Part shown: positions 1,749-13,520 of the stretch, one piece after another
Layout of the letters: each line of letters opens with the position of its first letter
Numbering within the stretch: the stretch's first letter is position 1
From: Patescibacteria group bacterium
Lineage (GTDB): Bacteria; Patescibacteriota; Patescibacteriia; 2-01-FULL-39-33
Assembly (NCBI GenBank): GCA_038065695.1
Contig: JBBTQN010000017.1
Coordinates: 1-56,602, forward strand
Length of the DNA stretch: 56,602 nt
Direction: 5' to 3'
The notes under the pieces: generated by a model
The model's input: the letters and a program-made list of their open reading frames with translations, nothing else
Database searches by the model: none
Told to the model about the DNA's origin: nothing
Program-made: the position numbers and the translations under genes

Positions 1749-1989
1749 GTTTCAATCGGATTATTGCCGAACGCCGGGAATCGGTGACGGCGTAGGAACT
1801 GAGGCGTCCTGGGGTGGGTTTAAGGTTAAGCGCTTAATCTTTAAACCTTCAATGGAAAAAAGTGACCATACCGAAACACGAACCTCAACGTACGACGTGA
1901 TTAGGTGGTTTATTAAGAGGGGGCAGACCCCTCAATTGGAAAAAGTCCCCAAGCATGGTCGGAAACATGCCAATAATCCGGTTTGAAAT
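1749..1989 (+). ncRNA. Candidate standalone structured ncRNA (~240 nt), family unassigned
   Basis: Long closing stem (1750-1766 with 1971-1988), at least five internal helices, own promoter upstream and terminator downstream. Confidence 0.65.
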
Positions 1990-2123: not shown

Positions 2124-3386
2124 ATGAAAAAGGCAGTTTTGTTGGCGTTAGTCTTGGCGATATATTCCGGCGCCGCTTGGTCGGCCAGAATTGACTACTG
2201 GGTGATTGACGACGGCTCCGCGAGCTTGAAGATTTTACAGCAACTTGACGCCGAAGGCGTTTCGCTGGAATCGCTTTTGGCGGTTCCACCGACGCCAGCG
2301 CTGACTTGGAATGATGTCCAAAAAATCGGCACGCTCTTTATGTTTGAAACGGCGCCGTGGGGCTGTTTTGACGACGCGGCGCCAAACAATTGGCAGGTTA
2401 TTCTCGACGGCCAAGGAAAAAATTGGAGCGGGGCCAATGTCAGCTTCACCGTCAACAATTCCTTAACCGCCAGAACCGTGCCTCACGCGGTAATCGGCGG
2501 CCAGAATTATTTCTTCAACACCGACCCAGATGGCCCGGCTAAGCTGGTCGCTTATCTGCACGGCAACCCCATCAATCTAAACGACTTTGGCGAATACGAA
2601 TTCAGTTTGTCAGGCATCACCCCGATCGTGAAGCCGACCATTACGACTCATCCGGTTTCGCAAATAGTCGCTCAAGGAGCAAGCGTAACATTTTCCGTTG
2701 TCGCGACCGGCACATTACCTCTCGTCTACCAATGGAAAAAAGACGGGGCCAATGTCGGCGCGAATTCACCCGATCTTGTCATCGCTTCGGTGGCTAATGC
2801 CGATGCCGGAAGCTACACTTGTATTGTCAGCAATTTGGCGGGCAGCGCGACTTCAAACGCCGCCATTTTGACGGTCACCGAACCGCCGGGCCGAGGCGAA
2901 ATCAATATCACGCACGGCGAGGATACCAATCTGCTCATCGCCATAAACATCACGGGCGATATCGAAGATGTAATCCCGGGCATTTCCGATGTCTCGCAAA
3001 TCAAACGTCTCGGCGCCAGTTATGTGGTCTGGGACGACGCGTCATTAAGTGAAAGGCAAGTCCATTCTTCACAGGAAGTGGTTATCACTGGCTGGCCAAT
3101 GACCATTCAGATCCCGAGCTTCGGCCGACCGGCGATGCAAATGAAATTATTTGCCATTGACCAAAACCGAGAAGTGCATTATTTCTCGATGGCAAACTGC
3201 CGCGGCGTCTTGGAGGCCTTACCGCCATTTTTTGAGGGCGGCGAACTCCAACTCGTCAATGGTTTCTGGCAGCTTCAATTGCCGGCCCAGCCATTGCCGT
3301 GGGGCAATGTTTGGTGGCTAACCATCGCGATAATCGCGGCCGCTTTGTTCGCGATAAGGCGGACGAGAAAACTAAGTACCAATTGA
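2124..3386 (+). CDS. Secreted Ig-domain surface protein with C-terminal TM and basic tail
   Basis: AGGAGG SD; signal peptide (AAWSA); PTITTHPVSQ...YQWKKDG...DAGSYTCIVSN Ig domain; C-terminus PLPWGNVWWLTIAIIAAALFAIRRTRK. Confidence 0.85.
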   Translation: MKKAVLLALVLAIYSGAAWSARIDYWVIDDGSASLKILQQLDAEGVSLESLLAVPPTPALTWNDVQKIGTLFMFETAPWGCFDDAAPNNWQVILDGQGKNWSGANVSFTVNNSLTARTVPHAVIGGQNYFFNTDPDGPAKLVAYLHGNPINLNDFGEYEFSLSGITPIVKPTITTHPVSQIVAQGASVTFSVVATGTLPLVYQWKKDGANVGANSPDLVIASVANADAGSYTCIVSNLAGSATSNAAILTVTEPPGRGEINITHGEDTNLLIAINITGDIEDVIPGISDVSQIKRLGASYVVWDDASLSERQVHSSQEVVITGWPMTIQIPSFGRPAMQMKLFAIDQNREVHYFSMANCRGVLEALPPFFEGGELQLVNGFWQLQLPAQPLPWGNVWWLTIAIIAAALFAIRRTRKLSTN

Positions 3387-4872: not shown

Positions 4873-4875
4873 AAA

Positions 4876-4948
4876 TAAAGTTATAAAGTTTATAAAGTAA
4901 GGCAACGAGTCATCTCCGACTTTTAACTTTACAAACTTTATAACTTTA
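4876..4948. repeat. Inverted short-tandem-array element (TAAAGTT-type units)
   Basis: 23-bp arms (4876-4898 and 4926-4948) with one mismatch. Confidence 0.8.
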
Positions 4949-4989
4949 TACTGAATAGGACATTGACAACCAAAAAGGAGGGATGAGAA

Positions 4990-5353: not shown

Positions 5354-5389
5354 CCCGGCGGACAAAGCTGTCCGCCGGGCGTTTTTTTT
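5354..5389 (+). terminator. Intrinsic terminator
   Basis: CCCGGCGGACA-AAGC-TGTCCGCCGGG followed by a T-tract. Confidence 0.85.
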
Positions 5390-5452
5390 ACCCCGTTAAG
5401 TAAAAAATCCTTCCAGGATTTTTTGGCGGCGAAGCCGCCTACTTAACGGGGT
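5390..5452. repeat. REP-like ACCCCGTTA...TAACGGGGT element, copy 2
   Basis: Near-identical to 1620-1682. Confidence 0.9.
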
Positions 5453-5534
5453 GAATTTTTATTTACCACTTTTGTATTTTTCTCTCTTTTTATGTTATAA
5501 TAAACATTAGAAATCTTATTTTGAAGGCGACAAA

Positions 5535-7259
5535 ATGATCAATCAAAAAGATTTAGAAGAAATCCTCGTCCAAAACAAAATTTTGGACGAAAAACAAATC
5601 AAGGATTTCACCGATCAAGCCAGAAAGCAGAAAAACTCGCTGGAAGATTTTTTAGTGGAAAAAAAGGTAATTTCGCCTGATTTGCTTTATGAAACCGCCG
5701 CCAAATACTACAAACTACCCTTCATTGACTTGAAAAATCGAAACATCAGAAAAGACATCCTTAATCTCATTCCGGAAATCACGGCCCAAGCCCATCACAC
5801 CGTCGCTTTTGACCGAAACGAAAAAGAGCTGATGGTCGCCACTTTGGACATATCAAACATAGAGCTTTTTGATTTCTTAGCCAAAAAAACCCAGCTGGAA
5901 ATCCAGCTCCACTTGACCGGCCCGGACAGCATCCGCGAGGCCTTGAAGCTTTATCGCAAAGGCCTTTCGGCGGAATTCCAAGAAATAGAAAAAGCCGAGG
6001 ACGCGGACGGCGAAAAGCCGGAAAAATTGAAAAATCTCGCCCAAGACCTGCCGATTGTCCGCATCGTGGACACGCTCCTGGAATACGCGATTTTGGAGAA
6101 GGCCTCGGATATCCATATTGAGCCGGCGGAAAAAGAAGTCAACATCCGCTATCGCGTGGACGGCATTTTGCGCAATGTGATGACTCTGCCGAAAAACACC
6201 CACGCCGGCGTCATCGCGAGAATCAAAATCCTTTCCAATCTGAAACTGGACGAACATCGCCTGCCCCAAGACGGCCGCTTCAAAATCAAAACCAACGAAT
6301 ACCAAGTATCTTTTCGCGTTTCTATCATTCCCACTTTTGACGGCGAAAAAATCGTCCTGCGCTTACTCCCCGAGCAGACCCAACAGCTCACTTTGGACCA
6401 GTTGGGGTTCCAGCCGAAAGTTTTGGAAATCGTCAAAAGAAGCATCGCCAAGCCCCACGGCATTATCCTCGTCACCGGCCCGACCGGCTCCGGCAAGACG
6501 ACCACGCTTTATTCCATTTTGGGCGTCTTAAACAAGCCGGAAGTCAACATCTCCACCATTGAAGACCCGATTGAATACCGAATGCCCGGCATCAACCAAA
6601 GCCAAGTCCAGCCGAAAATCGGCTTCAACTTCGCCACCGGGCTGCGTTCGTTTTTGCGCCAAGACCCGAACATTATCATGGTCGGCGAAATCCGCGACAT
6701 GGAAACCGCCGACATTGCCATTAACGCCGCGATGACCGGTCACTTGGTCTTGTCCACCCTCCACACCAATGACGCGGTCACCGCCATCCCCCGCCTCACC
6801 GACATGAAAGTCCCGACTTTTCTCATCGCTTCCACCGTCACCCTGGTGCTCGCCCAGCGCTTAGTCAGAAAAATTTGTAAAAATTGCATTGAAAGCTACA
6901 ACCTAGATAAAAAAACCATTGAAGAACTGGCCAAGCAGTTTAATTTGGATAAACTGGAAAAAAATTTAATCAAACAGGGACAGATGGAGGCCAAACAAAA
7001 TATCAGCTCCATTCTTTTTTATCGCGGCAAGGGCTGCCAGCAATGCAACAATACGGGATACAAGGGCCGCTTGGGCATCTACGAAGCTTTGGAAACCGAC
7101 GAGCAAATCGCCGATATGATCATTAAAAAAGCGACCCGCGACGAGCTCCAAAAAATCGCCATTGAAAAAGGGATGATTACTCTCCTTCAAGACGGTTTCA
7201 TTAAAGCCAAAAACGGCATCACGACGATTGAAGAAGTACTGCGGGTGACGCAGGAATAA
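5535..7259 (+). CDS. pilB: Type IV pilus assembly ATPase (PilB/GspE)
   Basis: ASDIHIEP, PQDGRF, GPTGSGKTTTLY, TIEDPIEY, LRQDPNIIMVGEIRD, GHLVLSTLHTN, CxxC pairs. Confidence 0.96.
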   Translation: MINQKDLEEILVQNKILDEKQIKDFTDQARKQKNSLEDFLVEKKVISPDLLYETAAKYYKLPFIDLKNRNIRKDILNLIPEITAQAHHTVAFDRNEKELMVATLDISNIELFDFLAKKTQLEIQLHLTGPDSIREALKLYRKGLSAEFQEIEKAEDADGEKPEKLKNLAQDLPIVRIVDTLLEYAILEKASDIHIEPAEKEVNIRYRVDGILRNVMTLPKNTHAGVIARIKILSNLKLDEHRLPQDGRFKIKTNEYQVSFRVSIIPTFDGEKIVLRLLPEQTQQLTLDQLGFQPKVLEIVKRSIAKPHGIILVTGPTGSGKTTTLYSILGVLNKPEVNISTIEDPIEYRMPGINQSQVQPKIGFNFATGLRSFLRQDPNIIMVGEIRDMETADIAINAAMTGHLVLSTLHTNDAVTAIPRLTDMKVPTFLIASTVTLVLAQRLVRKICKNCIESYNLDKKTIEELAKQFNLDKLEKNLIKQGQMEAKQNISSILFYRGKGCQQCNNTGYKGRLGIYEALETDEQIADMIIKKATRDELQKIAIEKGMITLLQDGFIKAKNGITTIEEVLRVTQE

Positions 7260-7274
7260 ACAAATAAATTTACC

Positions 7275-8345
7275 ATGAAAAAATCAAATTCGTTTTTTAT
7301 CAATTTACAGCGCGTTTCCGCCACCGCGAAGATTTTTTTATTGCAGAATCTTTCCATTATGGTTAAGACCGGCGTGCCTCTCGCCGAATCCATTAAAACT
7401 CTGGCGGAACAGACCAAAAATAAAAAATTAAAGATGATTTTGCGCGACTTATATGAAAAAATCAAGCAAGGAAAGACTTTAAGTGAAGGACTGTCTCCTT
7501 ATGAAAAAGATTTCGGCGAATTATTTATCAATATGATCAAAGCGGGCGAAGCGTCCGGCAACTTGGAGGGGGTCTTAAATAAGCTTTACCAAGAGATCAA
7601 AAAAGACCACAGTTTGACGCTTAAAGTGAGAAACGCGTTGACTTATCCGGTGATCATCATTATTGCGATGATCGGCATCAGTGCTTTTATGCTGATCTTT
7701 GTCCTGCCTAACATCACTAATTTATTTAAAGATTTTGACATTGAATTGCCTCTCACGACCAGAATTATGATCGGCGTGAGCGACTTCATCCAGCAAAATG
7801 GCCTCCTCGTCGCCACCGTTTTAATCATCCTTTTCGCCGTCCTCTTCAAAACGATCAGGACTAAAAAAGGCAAACGCGCCCTTGACGCCATCATTCTTAA
7901 ACTGCCGATAATTTCCCCGATTATTAAAAAAATAAATCTGGCTAGAATCTCCCGAAGCTTGAGCTCACTCATCAAAACCGACATCGCCATCGCCGAAAGC
8001 ATGACCATTACCGCCCACATCGTCGGCAATTCCCTCTACCGCGAAGCGATGCTTCAAGCGGTGGACCAAGTCAAAAAGGGCGTCAAAATCGAAACCGTTT
8101 TCCGGAATTATCCGCGGATTTTCCCACCGGTCATCATCCAGATGATCGCCGTCGGCGAAGAAACCGGCGCTTTGGACGAAGTGCTTGATAACCTCGCCGA
8201 TTTTTACGAAGAAGAAGTTTTCCAAACAATGGATTCACTGCCATCCATCATTGAGCCGATTTTAATGATCCTCATCGGCGTTGCTGTCGCCGTCATCGCT
8301 CTGGCGATTATGATGCCAATCTACTCTTTGACGGAGGCGTTTTAA
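7275..8345 (+). CDS. pilC: Type IV pilus platform protein (PilC/GspF)
   Basis: AGEASGNL, ALTYP, VGEETGALDEVL, IIEPILMI. Confidence 0.95.
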   Translation: MKKSNSFFINLQRVSATAKIFLLQNLSIMVKTGVPLAESIKTLAEQTKNKKLKMILRDLYEKIKQGKTLSEGLSPYEKDFGELFINMIKAGEASGNLEGVLNKLYQEIKKDHSLTLKVRNALTYPVIIIIAMIGISAFMLIFVLPNITNLFKDFDIELPLTTRIMIGVSDFIQQNGLLVATVLIILFAVLFKTIRTKKGKRALDAIILKLPIISPIIKKINLARISRSLSSLIKTDIAIAESMTITAHIVGNSLYREAMLQAVDQVKKGVKIETVFRNYPRIFPPVIIQMIAVGEETGALDEVLDNLADFYEEEVFQTMDSLPSIIEPILMILIGVAVAVIALAIMMPIYSLTEAF

Positions 8346-8382
8346 AATTAATCAATTACATCTTTTTGTTAAACAATCTGTA

Positions 8383-8522
8383 AATTTCTAATTTTTAATT
8401 TTGTAATTTTATAAATAATGCTCTAATTTTTAATTTTTAAAACCGCCAATTCTGTTTTTTAGTTATTAAAAATTAAATCATTAAAAATTATTTAAAAATT
8501 AAAAATTGGAAATTAAAAATTT
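8383..8522. repeat. AT-rich inverted short-tandem-array element (TAATTTT / AAAATTA)
   Basis: T-rich heptamer array facing an A-rich complementary array between pilC and the first pilin. Confidence 0.6.
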
Positions 8523-8541
8523 ATGCCTCTCTTTGATTATT

Positions 8542-8988
8542 ATGAAATTTAAACTAAATAAAAACGGCTTCACCCTCCTTGAAATCGTCATTGTCCTCGC
8601 CATTATCGCCATCCTCGCCCTCATCGGCTTTTCCGCCTTTAAAACCGTTCAGCCGAATCTAAATTTGAAAGGCGCCTCTCGGGACTTGGCTTCCGATTTG
8701 CGTTACGCCCAACAGTTGTCGGTCACCGAGCAGGTAAATTACTCCGTGAATTTTAATAAAAGCCAGAATAGCTATGCCATCGTTAAATCCACTACTGGCC
8801 AAATCATCAAAAACGCCTCGCTTGATGGCCAAATCTCCATTGACAATATTTCCAATCTAACCAACGACACGGCAAGTTTCAACGCGACGGGAGCCGCCCT
8901 GCAAGCCGGCTCAATCACTTTAATTAATTTAAACGGCGCCACTTCCACGATTGAAATCAAACCATCCGGCTATGTTAAAATTCAATGA
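8542..8988 (+). CDS. Type IV pilin-like protein (FimT/GspH-like)
   Basis: KNG|FTLLEIVIV prepilin motif; ATG at 8542 preferred as start. Confidence 0.9.
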   Translation: MKFKLNKNGFTLLEIVIVLAIIAILALIGFSAFKTVQPNLNLKGASRDLASDLRYAQQLSVTEQVNYSVNFNKSQNSYAIVKSTTGQIIKNASLDGQISIDNISNLTNDTASFNATGAALQAGSITLINLNGATSTIEIKPSGYVKIQ

Positions 8989-9400
8989 TAAATTTTTCGG
9001 CTTCAGCTTGATTGAAGCGCTGGTTGCCGTTGCGGTTTTGCTTATCGGCATTTTGGCGGTTTCCGTCGCCTTTCCTCTTTCACTTAAAGTCAGCCAATCA
9101 GCCGAGCAAGCCACCATCGCCGCCAACCTCGCCCAAGCAAAAATAGAAGAAATTTTCCAATCGGGCTATGACAATTTAAATATCGGCGACATTGAAGCCA
9201 AACATCGATTAGCCGAGACCTCGGCTGACCCGTTTTATTATTATCAAAGAGAAACCGAGGTTGAATATATTGATAGTAATTTAAACCACTCGGAAACCGA
9301 AACCGGAATGAAAAAAATCACCGTCACGGTTTATTGGTACAGTTCGGCTTTAAACGCGGAAAAAAACATGAGCTTGACGATTATCATGAGCCGGAAATGA
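8972..9400 (+). CDS. Minor pilin (PilV-like)
   Basis: G|FSLIEALVAVAVL; ATG at 8972. Confidence 0.88.
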   Translation: MLKFNDKFFGFSLIEALVAVAVLLIGILAVSVAFPLSLKVSQSAEQATIAANLAQAKIEEIFQSGYDNLNIGDIEAKHRLAETSADPFYYYQRETEVEYIDSNLNHSETETGMKKITVTVYWYSSALNAEKNMSLTIIMSRK

Positions 9401-9425
9401 AATTTATACCCCCTCTTTAATTATT

Positions 9426-9995
9426 ATGAAGTTTAAATCAAATAAAAACGGCTTCACCCTCCTTGAAGTCCTCATCGCCTTAGCCGTCACGATGCTGGTT
9501 TTTCTTTTGATTTTCAGTATTTATCATTTGAGCCAAGGCGCCTATCAGCGCACGGACGTCAAAGCCGAGCTCACTCAAAACGGCCGGGTGATTTTGGACC
9601 GGTTAGTCCGCGAACTCCGCCAAACTCCGGATGTCGTCACGGTACTGCCTCTTGATGATACTGACCCCGATGCTCTGCCAAACGGCATCTTGTTTGAAGA
9701 CGGACACAATGTGTCTGAAATCAAATATCTAAAATATCTGCTAAACGGAACGGAAATGCAAAAGCAAGTCGTAGTCTATCATTTTGCCGATGCTCCCGAT
9801 GATTATGTCCATCACGACGACACTGATCAATACGGAAATCCGCCGACCGATGAAGTTTTGGAAACTAAAGTTATCGGCGAATATGTTTCTGATATTGAGT
9901 TTTGGGGCAGCGGCGCGATAAACATCAAGCTCTATCTGACTAAAAACGGACAGACGGAGATAATGAATACGATAGTGTATGGGAGAAATTTATGA
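9426..9995 (+). CDS. Minor pilin (PilW-like)
   Basis: KNG|FTLLEVLIA; ILDRLVRELRQ. Confidence 0.88.
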   Translation: MKFKSNKNGFTLLEVLIALAVTMLVFLLIFSIYHLSQGAYQRTDVKAELTQNGRVILDRLVRELRQTPDVVTVLPLDDTDPDALPNGILFEDGHNVSEIKYLKYLLNGTEMQKQVVVYHFADAPDDYVHHDDTDQYGNPPTDEVLETKVIGEYVSDIEFWGSGAINIKLYLTKNGQTEIMNTIVYGRNL

Positions 9996-11200
9996 CCATT
10001 TGTAAATTTAAAAAACAAAAAGGGTTTATTCTCCTTACCGCCATCCTTATTATGGCTATTTTGCTTTTAATCGCCACCTATGTCACCAGTTTCACCATGA
10101 CCGAGTTTAAAATCGCTTCCAGCCAATCAACGGCTACTAAAACTTATTATCTGGCCGAAGCCGGAATTAATGAAATGCTTTGGAAAATCCAAAACGACCC
10201 CGCCACCGGCTTGGCCTTTACGAGCGGTATCTTGAGTTCCATAAACGACATCGACCGAAATAATATTTTTAATGATGAAAATGCCAGCTACCAAGTCGCG
10301 GCGATAAACACCGTGCCGGCCGAGGCTTGGATTATCGCCACCTCAACCTATCAAATTGGCGGCAGTGTTTCCCAGCGGGTGGTAAAATCATACGTCAGCC
10401 GGGCGACCTACAGCGGCCAAGATTGGGACTTTGGCGTTTTCGCCGGCGGACGCGGTTCCCAGCAAAACGGCAACTTCGTCTTCACCGGCGCGGGGATTGT
10501 TTTAGTTGCCAACGGCGGCCGGCTCCACGCCAACCAAGTTTTTAAAGTCCAAGGCGCGGAAGTGGTGGTAAATGACGGCTCGGTCACCGCCAGTAACGTC
10601 ATTAATGTGGTAGCGGGTGGAAAACTAACCCTCAACAACAGCACGCGAGAATCACCGACCACGACAATAGATATGCTCCAAATTGATTTTAATTCAGCCG
10701 ACCCGAACTCTTGGAAAAATCGGGCGACCGTCACTTATACGAAAACCCAGTTTAAAAATTTACCCGATAACACCACTCTTAACGGGATTATTTATGTGAC
10801 CGGCGAGGCGGAAATTACCGACAAAAATTTAACCATCAATGGCGTTTTAGTGGCCGAAGAAGACATTAAAATTACCTTAGCCGGTAAAACTTTAACGGTT
10901 AATGCCGGCCCCGCTTACGGCGGCGGCTTGCTGGCCAAAGAAGATATTGAAATTACCACTTCCGGCGGAGTCGTCGTTATTGATGGTTTAGTTTACGCCG
11001 CGGCTGATTTGGAAATCACCAGTTCAGGCACGAATTTCACCATTAACGGCAGTTTGACGGGATTTGACGCCAAAGTCACGGCGAGTGGCGGCGCCATCAT
11101 CCTGAACTATGAACCGGAAAATTTCCGGCCGGTAATCGACCCTGAATATAATCCTTCCTCGCCGATCATCCAGATCGACCATTGGGAGGAACAATACTGA
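9992..11200 (+). CDS. PilX-like minor pilin with C-terminal beta-rich repeats
   Basis: KG|FILLTA lacking E5; YYLAEAGI; repeated GIIYV/GVLVA/GLVYA motifs; ends WEEQY. Confidence 0.85.
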   Translation: MTICKFKKQKGFILLTAILIMAILLLIATYVTSFTMTEFKIASSQSTATKTYYLAEAGINEMLWKIQNDPATGLAFTSGILSSINDIDRNNIFNDENASYQVAAINTVPAEAWIIATSTYQIGGSVSQRVVKSYVSRATYSGQDWDFGVFAGGRGSQQNGNFVFTGAGIVLVANGGRLHANQVFKVQGAEVVVNDGSVTASNVINVVAGGKLTLNNSTRESPTTTIDMLQIDFNSADPNSWKNRATVTYTKTQFKNLPDNTTLNGIIYVTGEAEITDKNLTINGVLVAEEDIKITLAGKTLTVNAGPAYGGGLLAKEDIEITTSGGVVVIDGLVYAAADLEITSSGTNFTINGSLTGFDAKVTASGGAIILNYEPENFRPVIDPEYNPSSPIIQIDHWEEQY

Positions 11201-11202
11201 CG

Positions 11203-11299
11203 AAAGTTCAAAGTTAAAAGTCTAAAGTTAAAAGTCTGTTTATTAAATTTATAAAATAAAATCCAATGACTTTAGACTTTCGACTTTAGACTTTCAACT
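11203..11299. repeat. Inverted heptamer-array element (AAAGTY / RACTTT)
   Basis: About five AAAGTC/AAAGTT units facing about five GACTTT units. Confidence 0.8.
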
Positions 11300-11378
11300 A
11301 AATCATATTTTATAGAAATTTTCATATTTATAAATATTTATCGTATAATTAAATAAAGTGGATTAATTAATTTACAAG

Positions 11379-12446
11379 ATGTCTTTCTTCACCACAACTG
11401 AAACCGCTTTTGGCTTGGATATTTCCGACCGCAACTTGCGTTTGGCCCAGATGACGAAAAAATACAAATCAGTTGAGCTGGGATTGTATAATGAAATCAG
11501 ATTGCCGCCGGGTTGCATCGAATGCGGTGAAATCAAGCAATTGAAAATTTTCCTTGATTCGCTTTTGAAACTAATGAAAACCAAGCGCGGCTTCGGGCGG
11601 CTTAGCGATGAGGTGGTAGCGGTCCTGCCCGAAGAGCAGTCCTACCTTAAAGTGATGGACATCCCTTTGGTGGAAAAAGAGCAAATTCCGGAAGAAATTA
11701 AAAAAATTCTCCCCCAGCACGTGCCAGTCAGTCTAGACAGTATTTATTTTGACTTCCAGATTGTTAAAACGAATGAAAATGAAAGCGTACAAACCGTCTT
11801 AGTCGGTGCCGCGCTTAAAAAAACGGTTGATACTTATGTCGATATCTTGTCGCAAGCGGGCCTGATCCCGACGGTTTTGGAAATTGAAGCCGCCGCCATT
11901 TCCCGAGTGCTAGCCAGCCAAAAAACCGACCCGACGCCGCAAATAATCATTGACATTGGCGCAAATCGAACCGGCCTTTTCCTCTTTGACGAAAATGTCG
12001 TCAAGTTTACCGTTAGCTTGCCGATTTCCGGCGCTAAAATTACCGAACTTATTATGCAGGCGCTCTCGCTTGATTTTGAAAAGGCCGAGCAGGCCAAAAT
12101 CGTCTGCGGACTTGACCGGGAGAAATGCCACGGCGCGCTTTTGGAAATTTTTTCGGGCACCGTGGAAGAGCTGGCTAGCCACATCAATGAAGCGATTAAA
12201 TTTTACCAGAACGGCGCGAATGAGCCGAAAAAAATCGCTAAAATCGTTTTAGGCGGCGGTGGCGCCAATTTCATCAATATCACCGAGATTATCCAGGGCA
12301 AATTGGGCATCCCGACTGAAGTGAGCAACCCTTGGCGTTACATAAAAAATCCGAATCAAAATTATTTCGACCGGGAAAAATCACAATCATTTATCACCGC
12401 TCTCGGCCTGGGCCTAAGAGGCATCAATCCCGATACTTTCCTATGA
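11379..12446 (+). CDS. pilM: Type IV pilus assembly protein PilM
   Basis: FGLDISD, IIDIGA, VLGGGGA actin-like motifs; TALGLGLR. Confidence 0.93.
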   Translation: MSFFTTTETAFGLDISDRNLRLAQMTKKYKSVELGLYNEIRLPPGCIECGEIKQLKIFLDSLLKLMKTKRGFGRLSDEVVAVLPEEQSYLKVMDIPLVEKEQIPEEIKKILPQHVPVSLDSIYFDFQIVKTNENESVQTVLVGAALKKTVDTYVDILSQAGLIPTVLEIEAAAISRVLASQKTDPTPQIIIDIGANRTGLFLFDENVVKFTVSLPISGAKITELIMQALSLDFEKAEQAKIVCGLDREKCHGALLEIFSGTVEELASHINEAIKFYQNGANEPKKIAKIVLGGGGANFINITEIIQGKLGIPTEVSNPWRYIKNPNQNYFDREKSQSFITALGLGLRGINPDTFL

Positions 12447-12979
12447 TCAATATCAACCTGCTCTCTCCGGAACAAAAAAAGAGCCTGAAAACCAAACGCG
12501 TTTATATCGCCACCAAGGAAATGGTAATGTTGGTTTTGCTTTTTACCACCATTATCGCGATTATGCTTTTAGTTTCCCGTTATGTCTTAGAGACGCAACT
12601 AGCCAATTTAGTCATCAGGAACGCCAACGCGATCAAAATCAGCCAGGAAACCAACAAAAAAATAATCAATCTTAACAAAGTCATTAGCGAAGTTGAAACA
12701 ATCCAAAGAAATTTCAAACTTTGGTCGGGATTTTTAATCCGATTGACGCGGACCGTGCCGGAAAACATTTCTTTTTCCACCTTGAAGATTTATCGCGACT
12801 CGGCGACTTTAGAGATTAAGGGGAAAGCCAAAGCCCGGCCAGATTTGATTAAATTCCAAAAAAATTTGGAAGACAGCAAGCTGTTTAAGAATGTCAATTT
12901 GCCGCTCGCCGACCTTCTCGTCAAGGAAAATAATAATTTTACGATCCAAGCGGTAATTGACTTGGAAAAAATTCCCTAA
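12443..12979 (+). CDS. pilN: PilN-like protein
   Basis: MININLLSP start overlapping the pilM stop (ATGA); TM, coiled coil, VPENI. Confidence 0.88.
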   Translation: MININLLSPEQKKSLKTKRVYIATKEMVMLVLLFTTIIAIMLLVSRYVLETQLANLVIRNANAIKISQETNKKIINLNKVISEVETIQRNFKLWSGFLIRLTRTVPENISFSTLKIYRDSATLEIKGKAKARPDLIKFQKNLEDSKLFKNVNLPLADLLVKENNNFTIQAVIDLEKIP

Positions 12980-12989
12980 AAATTTCTTC

Positions 12990-13520
12990 ATGTTCTACCA
13001 AAAAAATAAATTTTTAATCAACCTGGGAATGATCATGATTATCGTCATCGCGATGATTATTTTTATTATTATTCCCGCCTTCAAAGAAATTATTGCCGTC
13101 AATCGCGAAATCAACAAAGAAAGAGTCGCTTTGGAACAAAAGTTGGAACAAGGATTGAATCTGAAAAAAATCCAAATCGAACTGTCGGAAATCCAAGACA
13201 AGCTGGGCGGACTTGACCGCCTTTTTGTCGCTAAAGGCCAAGAATTGGCTTTTGTCACCGAAATGGAAAATATCGCCTCGGCCGACGGCATTTCCTTAAA
13301 AATTGTTTCTGATTTTTCTGAAGAACCGCTGAAAGGAGAGGAAAAAATAAAGAAAACCGCCCTGCAAATGGAAATTTCCGGCAACTACCAGAATATCATT
13401 AAATTTCTAAACGACTTGGAAAAAATGCCTTATTATTTTAATGTTGAGATGGCAATCTTTTCGCTAAAAACCAACGCGCTCTCGGCGCAAATTCTCGGCC
13501 AAATTTATGTCAAAAATTAA
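12990..13520 (+). CDS. pilO: PilO-like protein
   Basis: N-terminal TM, coiled coil, ISGNYQNIIKFLNDLEKMP. Confidence 0.88.
   Translation: MFYQKNKFLINLGMIMIIVIAMIIFIIIPAFKEIIAVNREINKERVALEQKLEQGLNLKKIQIELSEIQDKLGGLDRLFVAKGQELAFVTEMENIASADGISLKIVSDFSEEPLKGEEKIKKTALQMEISGNYQNIIKFLNDLEKMPYYFNVEMAIFSLKTNALSAQILGQIYVKN

Follow-up and report, generated by a model that had tools for sequence, protein, structure and literature searches.

Base-pairing small RNAs are typically shorter and less branched than the ~240-nt RNA described here. The raiA, OLE, ROOL, and GOLLD classes are widespread and are characterized by abundant covariation. A literature search for regulatory or structural small RNAs in the CPR/Patescibacteria turned up no description of any.

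The DNA analysed in this investigation, hereafter the window, is a 56,602-nt stretch from a Patescibacteria group bacterium. It corresponds to contig C17 of a genome, referred to as G000, with 31 contigs totalling 811,691 bp, a rated completeness of 98.4%, and a G+C content of 43.7%. All 11 of the sequencing runs listed as containing the region are groundwater metagenomes, and none of them is on record as RNA. Genome size, habitat, and the lack of SRP would likewise place the organism in the Candidate Phyla Radiation (CPR). We consider it reasonably likely that a structured non-coding RNA is encoded by positions 1713 to 2019 of the forward strand as a self-contained gene, which is confined to one lineage and lies outside the described RNA families. 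That the locus is a real non-coding RNA gene is, in our judgement, fairly likely. It is probably a genus-level orphan gene for a structured small RNA, the product of which would be transcribed from its own promoter and would act in trans. If this is true, an RNA conserved together with its promoter and terminator, with a shape maintained by compensatory changes, would provide a concrete entry point to the small RNAs of the CPR, and would do so in a genome that lacks SRP, Hfq, CsrA, and Ro. The value of the finding is limited in that it concerns one genus-level, uncultured groundwater lineage, for which transcription and function are predicted at most.

The locus and its transcription signals

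The candidate sits between two Ig-domain genes, one of which ends at position 1529 and the other of which starts at position 2124. The upstream gene is followed by a terminator, located by a hairpin scan at 1571-1599 plus a T run, and a dispersed palindromic repeat at 1610-1688 lies directly upstream of the RNA gene. The downstream gene (2124-3386) encodes an Ig-domain surface protein and lies on the same strand as the RNA, 135 nt further on. The neighbourhood is one of Ig-domain surface proteins, a GT4 glycosyltransferase, and a type IV pilus operon. The pilus cluster (5535-13520), which is positioned downstream of the surface-protein and glycosyltransferase genes, encodes a PilB-like ATPase, PilC, three prepilin-type proteins, a PilX-N protein, PilM, PilN, and PilO.

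The first-pass annotation had proposed an independent transcript with a TTGACA promoter just before it, a terminator after it, and a separate promoter for the next gene. Each of these elements can be found where it was expected. The -35 box, TTGACA, occupies 1713-1718 on the forward strand, and a -10-like box follows 17-18 nt further on. When read by eye, the -10 region is either TTAAAT at 1736-1741, with a 17-nt spacer, or TGT plus TAAATA at 1734-1742, an extended -10-like arrangement with an 18-nt spacer. A consensus scan passed over this promoter, the -10 box of which does not satisfy its requirement at position 2 or 6. In G000 there are 12 occurrences of the word TTGACAAAAAT, mostly with a -10-like box after them, and the word thus looks like a local form of promoter. 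The intrinsic terminator lies at 1992-2019. The scan reports a terminator-like hairpin at 1992-2011 plus a T run, and inspection by eye gives an 8-bp, G+C-rich stem (1992-1999/2008-2015), an 8-nt loop, and T residues to 2019. The promoter of the next gene, TTGACA-17-TACAAT at 2026-2054 on the forward strand, agrees with the consensus at 11 of 12 positions. Judged from these signals, the locus looks like a separate non-coding transcription unit. The body of the RNA, the start of which is predicted from the promoter geometry, would comprise 241 nt (1749-1989, forward strand), and the predicted transcript of ~270 nt would consist of this body and the terminator hairpin.

Several other features of the window and of G000 were recorded. 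A second terminator-like hairpin with a T run (2055-2078) lies just past the promoter of the downstream Ig-domain gene, within its 5' leader, and may be an attenuator. The contig begins with a tandem repeat of a 12-nt unit (AGGAGAAGGAGA-like; 2-104), present in at least six copies. It falls within the upstream Ig-domain gene, which is open at its 5' end, and when read in frame with this gene it would be translated as a Gly-Glu repeat. Between the glycosyltransferase gene and pilB, which are 727 nt apart, there is a 24-nt inverted repeat (4875-4949), the arms of which are 96% complementary and separated by 27 nt. It adjoins more copies of the ACCCCGTTAA/TTAACGGGGT arms. The palindromic repeat at 1610-1688 belongs to a dispersed element of ~65 nt that is present in 10 copies in G000. 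A second copy in the window lies at 5380-5458, and the others are found at C21:27665-27743, C4:4077-4155, C3:10075-10151, C13:9200-9278, C18:3529-3607, C18:57223-57301, C16:110804-110883, and C5:12445-12522. Its outer 14-bp stem, formed by CACCCCGTTAAGTA and its complement, surrounds two hairpins, the second of which displays compensatory changes between copies; in the C16 copy this hairpin is wholly different in sequence, yet paired. The element matches no Rfam family, recurs with varied flanks in contigs of two of the related metagenomes described below (X7 and X9), and may be either a REP-like element or a multi-copy structured RNA. Finally, four ORF-free windows of 240 nt in G000 (C10:58346-58585, C18:3530-3769, C7:2857-3096, and C5:301-540) fold at -99 to -111 kcal/mol, an energy far below that expected from their composition. 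In three of them the two strands fold with similar stability, and these windows may represent long palindromes or clusters of repeats.

Predicted fold and copies in related metagenomes

In the minimum free energy (MFE) fold, the two ends of the RNA, 1749-1766 and 1971-1989, pair to form an 18-bp helix with one bulge, and this helix would close a multi-branched core of five hairpins. Hairpin 1 (1771-1793) is built from the 6-bp stem ACGCCG/CGGCGT and an 11-nt loop. Hairpin 2 (1816-1848) has a 14-bp stem with a single bulge and a loop of 4 nt, and hairpin 3 (1864-1910) displays an interrupted stem capped by a 15-nt loop. Hairpin 4 (1917-1933), with the stem GAGGGG/CCCCTC, is variable in length, and hairpin 5 (1953-1970) has the stem GCATG/CATGC and an 8-nt loop containing GGAA. 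The paired ends and all five of these internal helices had been drawn by eye in the first-pass annotation, and the MFE fold recovers them. The long-range TGGGG/CCCCA helix proposed there is missing from the fold, which instead pairs 1936-1939 with 1949-1952, and the two possible pseudoknots suggested there are likewise no part of it. All 60 pairs in the trimmed fold model are standard pairs. Five of them are G-U on the forward strand and would be A.C on the reverse strand, and thus the model fits the forward strand only.

The MFE of the body is -79.2 kcal/mol on the forward strand (z = -3.04), and one of 200 shuffled sequences folded equally well. The reverse strand gives -69.1 kcal/mol and a z-score of -2.23 relative to its own shuffles. 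As a background, 874 ORF-free windows of 240 nt from 143 segments of G000 were folded, and 241 of them are at least as stable as the candidate when corrected for length and G+C content. The ORF-free background of this genome is itself rich in structured elements, and the folding energy of the candidate is not exceptional within it. The earlier description of the RNA as highly structured is consequently based on the comparative data and not solely on energy.

The comparative data are derived from four sequencing runs belonging to four other groundwater metagenome studies. Each of these runs contains 5-18% of the sampled words, and the copies were read at a likeness of at least 80%. They consist of short contigs at a depth of 2-4 together with tables of differences, and there are 11 substitutions and 2 indels beyond those listed. 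The copies are 85-99% identical to the candidate, and this conservation may in part simply reflect recent common descent. The X9 copy is represented by two pieces, 1711-1845 with 6 substitutions and 1866-2019 with 17. The X7 piece covers 1839-2019 with 5 substitutions, the X5 piece covers 1881-2018 with a single substitution (99% identity), and the X11 piece covers 1760-1908 with 12 substitutions.

The limits of these pieces are informative. The X9 copy opens at 1711, two bases 5' of the -35 box, and is preceded on the same contig by ~100 unlike bases. The X5, X7, and X9 pieces all stop at 2018-2019, which is the end of the T run. Past 2018 the X5 contig no longer resembles the window, and in X9 a further TTGACAAAAAT-type word follows. 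The conserved block thus begins near the -35 box and ends with the T run, so that the conserved (or moving) unit is that of promoter, RNA, and terminator. The -10 region at 1734-1742 is the same in X9, the listed changes nearby being those at 1745 and 1747.

With respect to the helices, the clearest changes are those in hairpin 5 (1953-1970). In X9, 1955 A>G is accompanied by 1968 T>C, and 1956 T>C is accompanied by 1967 A>G, such that two A-U pairs become G-C pairs. When the 17 substitutions of X9 were placed at random, at least two pairs kept by double-sided changes arose in 0.4% of 200,000 trials (P ~0.004). In the closing helix, no X9 change is listed in the 5' arm, and 1981 G>A in the 3' arm converts the U-G pair 1756/1981 to U-A. 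Hairpin 4 is shortened on both arms in X7 and X9, by 3 nt on the 5' arm and by 1 nt on the 3' arm. The sole listed change in hairpin 1, 1786 G>A, lies in the loop and is found in both X9 and X11. The same two copies share a loop change in hairpin 2, 1830 G>A, and a change at 1769; all three of these common changes fall at unpaired positions. Hairpin 3 is the best conserved part of the RNA, with no differences listed between 1871 and 1910 in X5, X7, X9, or X11, although this listing is incomplete. The X11 copy argues in the opposite direction. The 3' arm of its hairpin 2 is changed at 1841-1845, whereby three pairs are lost as listed and two become U-G, and a change at 1870 breaks one more, so that four modelled pairs in total are disrupted (by the changes at 1841-1843 and 1870). 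Moreover, 11 of the 24 listed substituted positions are paired in the model and 13 are unpaired, and thus there is no preference for unpaired sites. The compensatory evidence so far amounts to two double changes and one U-G to U-A replacement in X9, set against the four broken pairs in X11. Covariation among homologs, which the first-pass annotation had put forward as a test, is present to some extent, but the double changes are confined to one hairpin of one relative. Both copies of the TGGAAAAA(A)GT motif pointed out by eye are present in the candidate, but the second, TGGAAAAAGT, is rewritten in X9.

The copies also bear on coding potential. The only open reading frame of at least 40 codons is an ATG-initiated one of 44 codons at 1852-1986, and its conservation as a protein had been named as a finding that would speak against an RNA gene. 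Net indels of -4 in X7 and -7 in X9 fall within this frame and break it, which indicates that it is not coding. The same indels also break the reverse-strand open reading frames at 1885-2001 and 1913-2032.

Distribution and competing explanations

The RNA is present in a single copy in G000. A BLAST search of 61 genomes with positions 1740-2020 gave one match beyond the window, 29 nt in the genome G049, which lies inside an apparent coding stretch and was taken as chance. A covariance model built from the single sequence (R1) matched none of the 33 other genomes of the family, which span 18 other genera, and none of 150 other genomes of the class. When run with the filters off on 13 of the 30 loci near relatives of the downstream gene (43,432 nt), it returned short-hairpin noise of at most 15.3 bits. 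A 30-nt pattern with three mismatches allowed had no match in 400 other genomes of the class, and scans with exact patterns were likewise negative (two patterns on metagenome contigs, two on genome contigs, and three on viral contigs). Similar DNA was not found by blastn in collections of phages and plasmids. In three other genera the downstream gene has likely orthologues, which are preceded by 285, 182, and 135 nt, and the RNA is absent from these upstream regions. The genomes compared include no second species representative of the genus. On this distribution, the gene appears to be restricted to a genus-level lineage and its close uncultured groundwater relatives.

Such a narrow distribution would also be expected of a relic, or of a small MITE-like mobile cassette with the 18-bp arms of the closing helix as terminal inverted repeats, located in a variable surface-protein region and conserved by kinship. 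This explanation, which we regard as rather unlikely, is consistent with the different flank in X5, with the dispersed palindromic repeat directly upstream, with a folding energy that is ordinary for the ORF-free DNA of G000, and with the damage to hairpin 2 in X11. The inverted ends are indeed present, but a MITE or dispersed repeat is not what the copy number suggests: there is one copy in G000, whereas the neighbouring element at 1610-1688 has 10. Furthermore, the limits of the conserved block are the -35 box and the terminator and not the inverted repeats, and the changes include two double compensatory ones and the replacement of a G-U pair by A-U. Similar DNA is also lacking in the phage and plasmid collections.

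The position of the RNA, 135 nt upstream of an Ig-domain gene on the same strand, raises the question of a cis-acting leader. In this case transcription would read through 1992-2019 into the gene at 2124-3386, and the RNA would serve as a riboswitch-like sensor or attenuator. The size of the RNA and its closing helix recall the large aptamers, and the second terminator-like hairpin in the 5' leader of the gene may speak for attenuation at the locus. We nevertheless consider a leader unlikely. The gene has a strong promoter of its own, located past the terminator, and X9 has a similar promoter word after its terminator. The X5 copy, although 99% identical, is followed by a different sequence, and the orthologous genes of the three other genera lack the RNA in their upstream regions. 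No riboswitch or leader family in Rfam matches the RNA, and no way for the terminator to pair instead with the closing helix's 3' arm was apparent by eye.

Matches to the known families were sought more broadly. Searched with Rfam 15 at gathering scores, the window contains only a tRNA, which lies elsewhere, and nothing credible emerges for the region itself at E<=10; the earlier claim that the RNA belongs to no described family is thus borne out. ARAGORN likewise finds neither tmRNA nor tRNA at this site and reports only the tRNA elsewhere in the window. RNase P RNA, tmRNA, SRP RNA, and 6S RNA had already been rejected by eye, and the genome supports this judgement. The RNase P RNA of G000 is located at C13:36329-36738 (162.9 bits) and its tmRNA at C16:120946-121326 (106.2 bits).

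That the candidate is a very divergent housekeeping RNA missed by the models, either 6S or SRP RNA, is very unlikely. Its strong promoter, own terminator, and paired ends would suit such an RNA, and neither 6S nor SRP RNA was detected in G000 or its relatives. In the case of SRP RNA, the models RF00169 and RF01854 have no match in G000 at E<=1, and RF00169, the model of the small-type SRP RNA, matched none of 61 class genomes. The Pfam models SRP_SPB (PF02978) and SRP54 (PF00448) find nothing in G000, and hence neither Ffh nor FtsY is detected there. The best tblastn match of E. coli Ffh in G000 has an E-value of 0.47. Of the six E. coli proteins from the same stretch that served as controls, four were found (TrmD, S16, L19, and GrpE), and the other two, RimM and NadK, had no match in G000 at E<=0.001. 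SRP_SPB, which represents the Ffh M domain, was found in none of 41 class genomes and in none of 81 sampled genomes of the phylum. With Ffh and FtsY absent from G000, the identity of the candidate as SRP RNA is excluded. A passage in PMC8080830 describes two SRP subunits as absent in many CPR bacteria. The loss of SRP in the CPR is thus already known, but its uniform absence in the present sample is striking. In the relevant passage of PMC10768705, the SRP genes named carry APY09 tags, and they are taken as those of the host rather than of TM7x.

For 6S RNA the argument is of a different kind. 6S RNAs retain little sequence similarity, and the 6S model (RF00013) matches 5 of 14 control genomes; it has no match in G000 at E<=1 and none in 40 relatives. 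When the candidate is forced into a rod-like fold, its energy is -54.1 kcal/mol versus -79.2 kcal/mol for the branched fold. The corresponding value for shuffled sequences is -47.7 ± 5.7 kcal/mol, so that the rod is ~1 SD better than the shuffles. The rod fold is accordingly unsupported. A housekeeping RNA would, in addition, be expected throughout the family, and no counterpart was found in its 18 other genera.

Finally, a small protein encoded by the 44-codon frame or by another short frame on either strand is scarcely credible: an ATG-started frame does exist, but by eye no Shine-Dalgarno sequence precedes it, there is no Pfam match, the indels of X7 and X9 disrupt it and both reverse-strand frames, and none of these frames is hydrophobic in the manner of a type I toxin. 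A template repeat of a diversity-generating retroelement (DGR) was also considered and rejected, there being no repeat common to the RNA and the flanking Ig-domain genes.

Mode of action and comparison with known systems

For the orphan small RNA that we favour, possible targets were sought by comparing six unpaired segments with 1,397 crudely defined translation start regions, a crude scan in itself. The complementarity of five of the six segments to the start regions is no better than that of shuffled sequences. Indeed, the loop at 1879-1897 reaches a value of -19.5, which is worse than the mean shuffle minimum of -23.4. The segment at 1934-1952 is slightly better (-23.1 versus -20.7 for the best shuffle), and it belongs to the variable part of the RNA. 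A scan with the whole RNA produced meaninglessly long duplexes and was discarded. As for protein partners, CsrA, Ro, and Hfq were sought in G000 and none was detected. An Hfq-dependent small RNA was rejected on the basis of the missing Hfq and the lack of a clear signal in the target scan, a Y RNA on the basis that Ro/TROVE (PF05731) has no match, and an RNA of the CsrB/Rsm type on the basis that CsrA (PF02599) has no match and that GGA occurs 6 times versus 5.2 expected.

Our preference, a tentative one, is for a mechanism in which the RNA would bind or sequester a protein, either as a regulatory decoy or as part of a small ribonucleoprotein, rather than pair with mRNAs. This is favoured by the length and compactness of the RNA and by the very stable helix that closes it, by the fact that its best conserved loop lacks excess complementarity to translation start regions, and by a genome without Hfq.

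A more far-reaching proposal, to which we assign only a small chance, is that the RNA represents a hitherto undescribed class of CPR RNAs, compact and multi-branched, of which it would be the first member and which would act as the core of a small ribonucleoprotein or as a ribozyme. Counterparts in other genera would then be too diverged for models built from a single sequence. In this lineage SRP is absent, and Hfq, CsrA, Ro, and 6S RNA are not detectable. The ribozyme or ribonucleoprotein scaffold suggested in the first-pass annotation has gained nothing in its support from the searches. With regard to the hammerhead, the core of which is CUGANGA, the CUGAGG at 1799 does not fit, and no ribozyme family gives a match.

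Returning to the orphan RNA gene, a comparison with the described systems shows both likenesses and differences. With 6S RNA (RF00013) the candidate shares paired ends, a roughly similar size, and its own promoter, and the genome contains no other detectable 6S RNA. Its core, however, is branched and is not a rod with a central bubble, it is not matched by the covariance model, and it is absent from the neighbouring genera searched. Like CsrB/RsmZ and like YrlA, which functions with Ro, the candidate is composed of multiple hairpins, has a long terminal helix, and carries some GGA in its loops (1777 and 1961). In contrast to them, it occurs in a genome lacking a CsrA or Ro/TROVE gene, is not enriched in GGA, and has no Rfam match. 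As with the raiA, OLE, ROOL, and GOLLD classes, the candidate is structured, is longer than most small RNAs, and has no known function; it differs from them in that one lineage only is known to carry it, that the covariation data are minimal, and that no Rfam family matches it. Lastly, although the 18-bp helix that closes its ends, a genome without Hfq, and the lack of detected target complementarity distinguish it from the orphan lineage-specific small RNAs, it resembles them in being a stand-alone intergenic unit that has its own promoter and terminator, is non-coding, and is present as a single copy in a narrow lineage.
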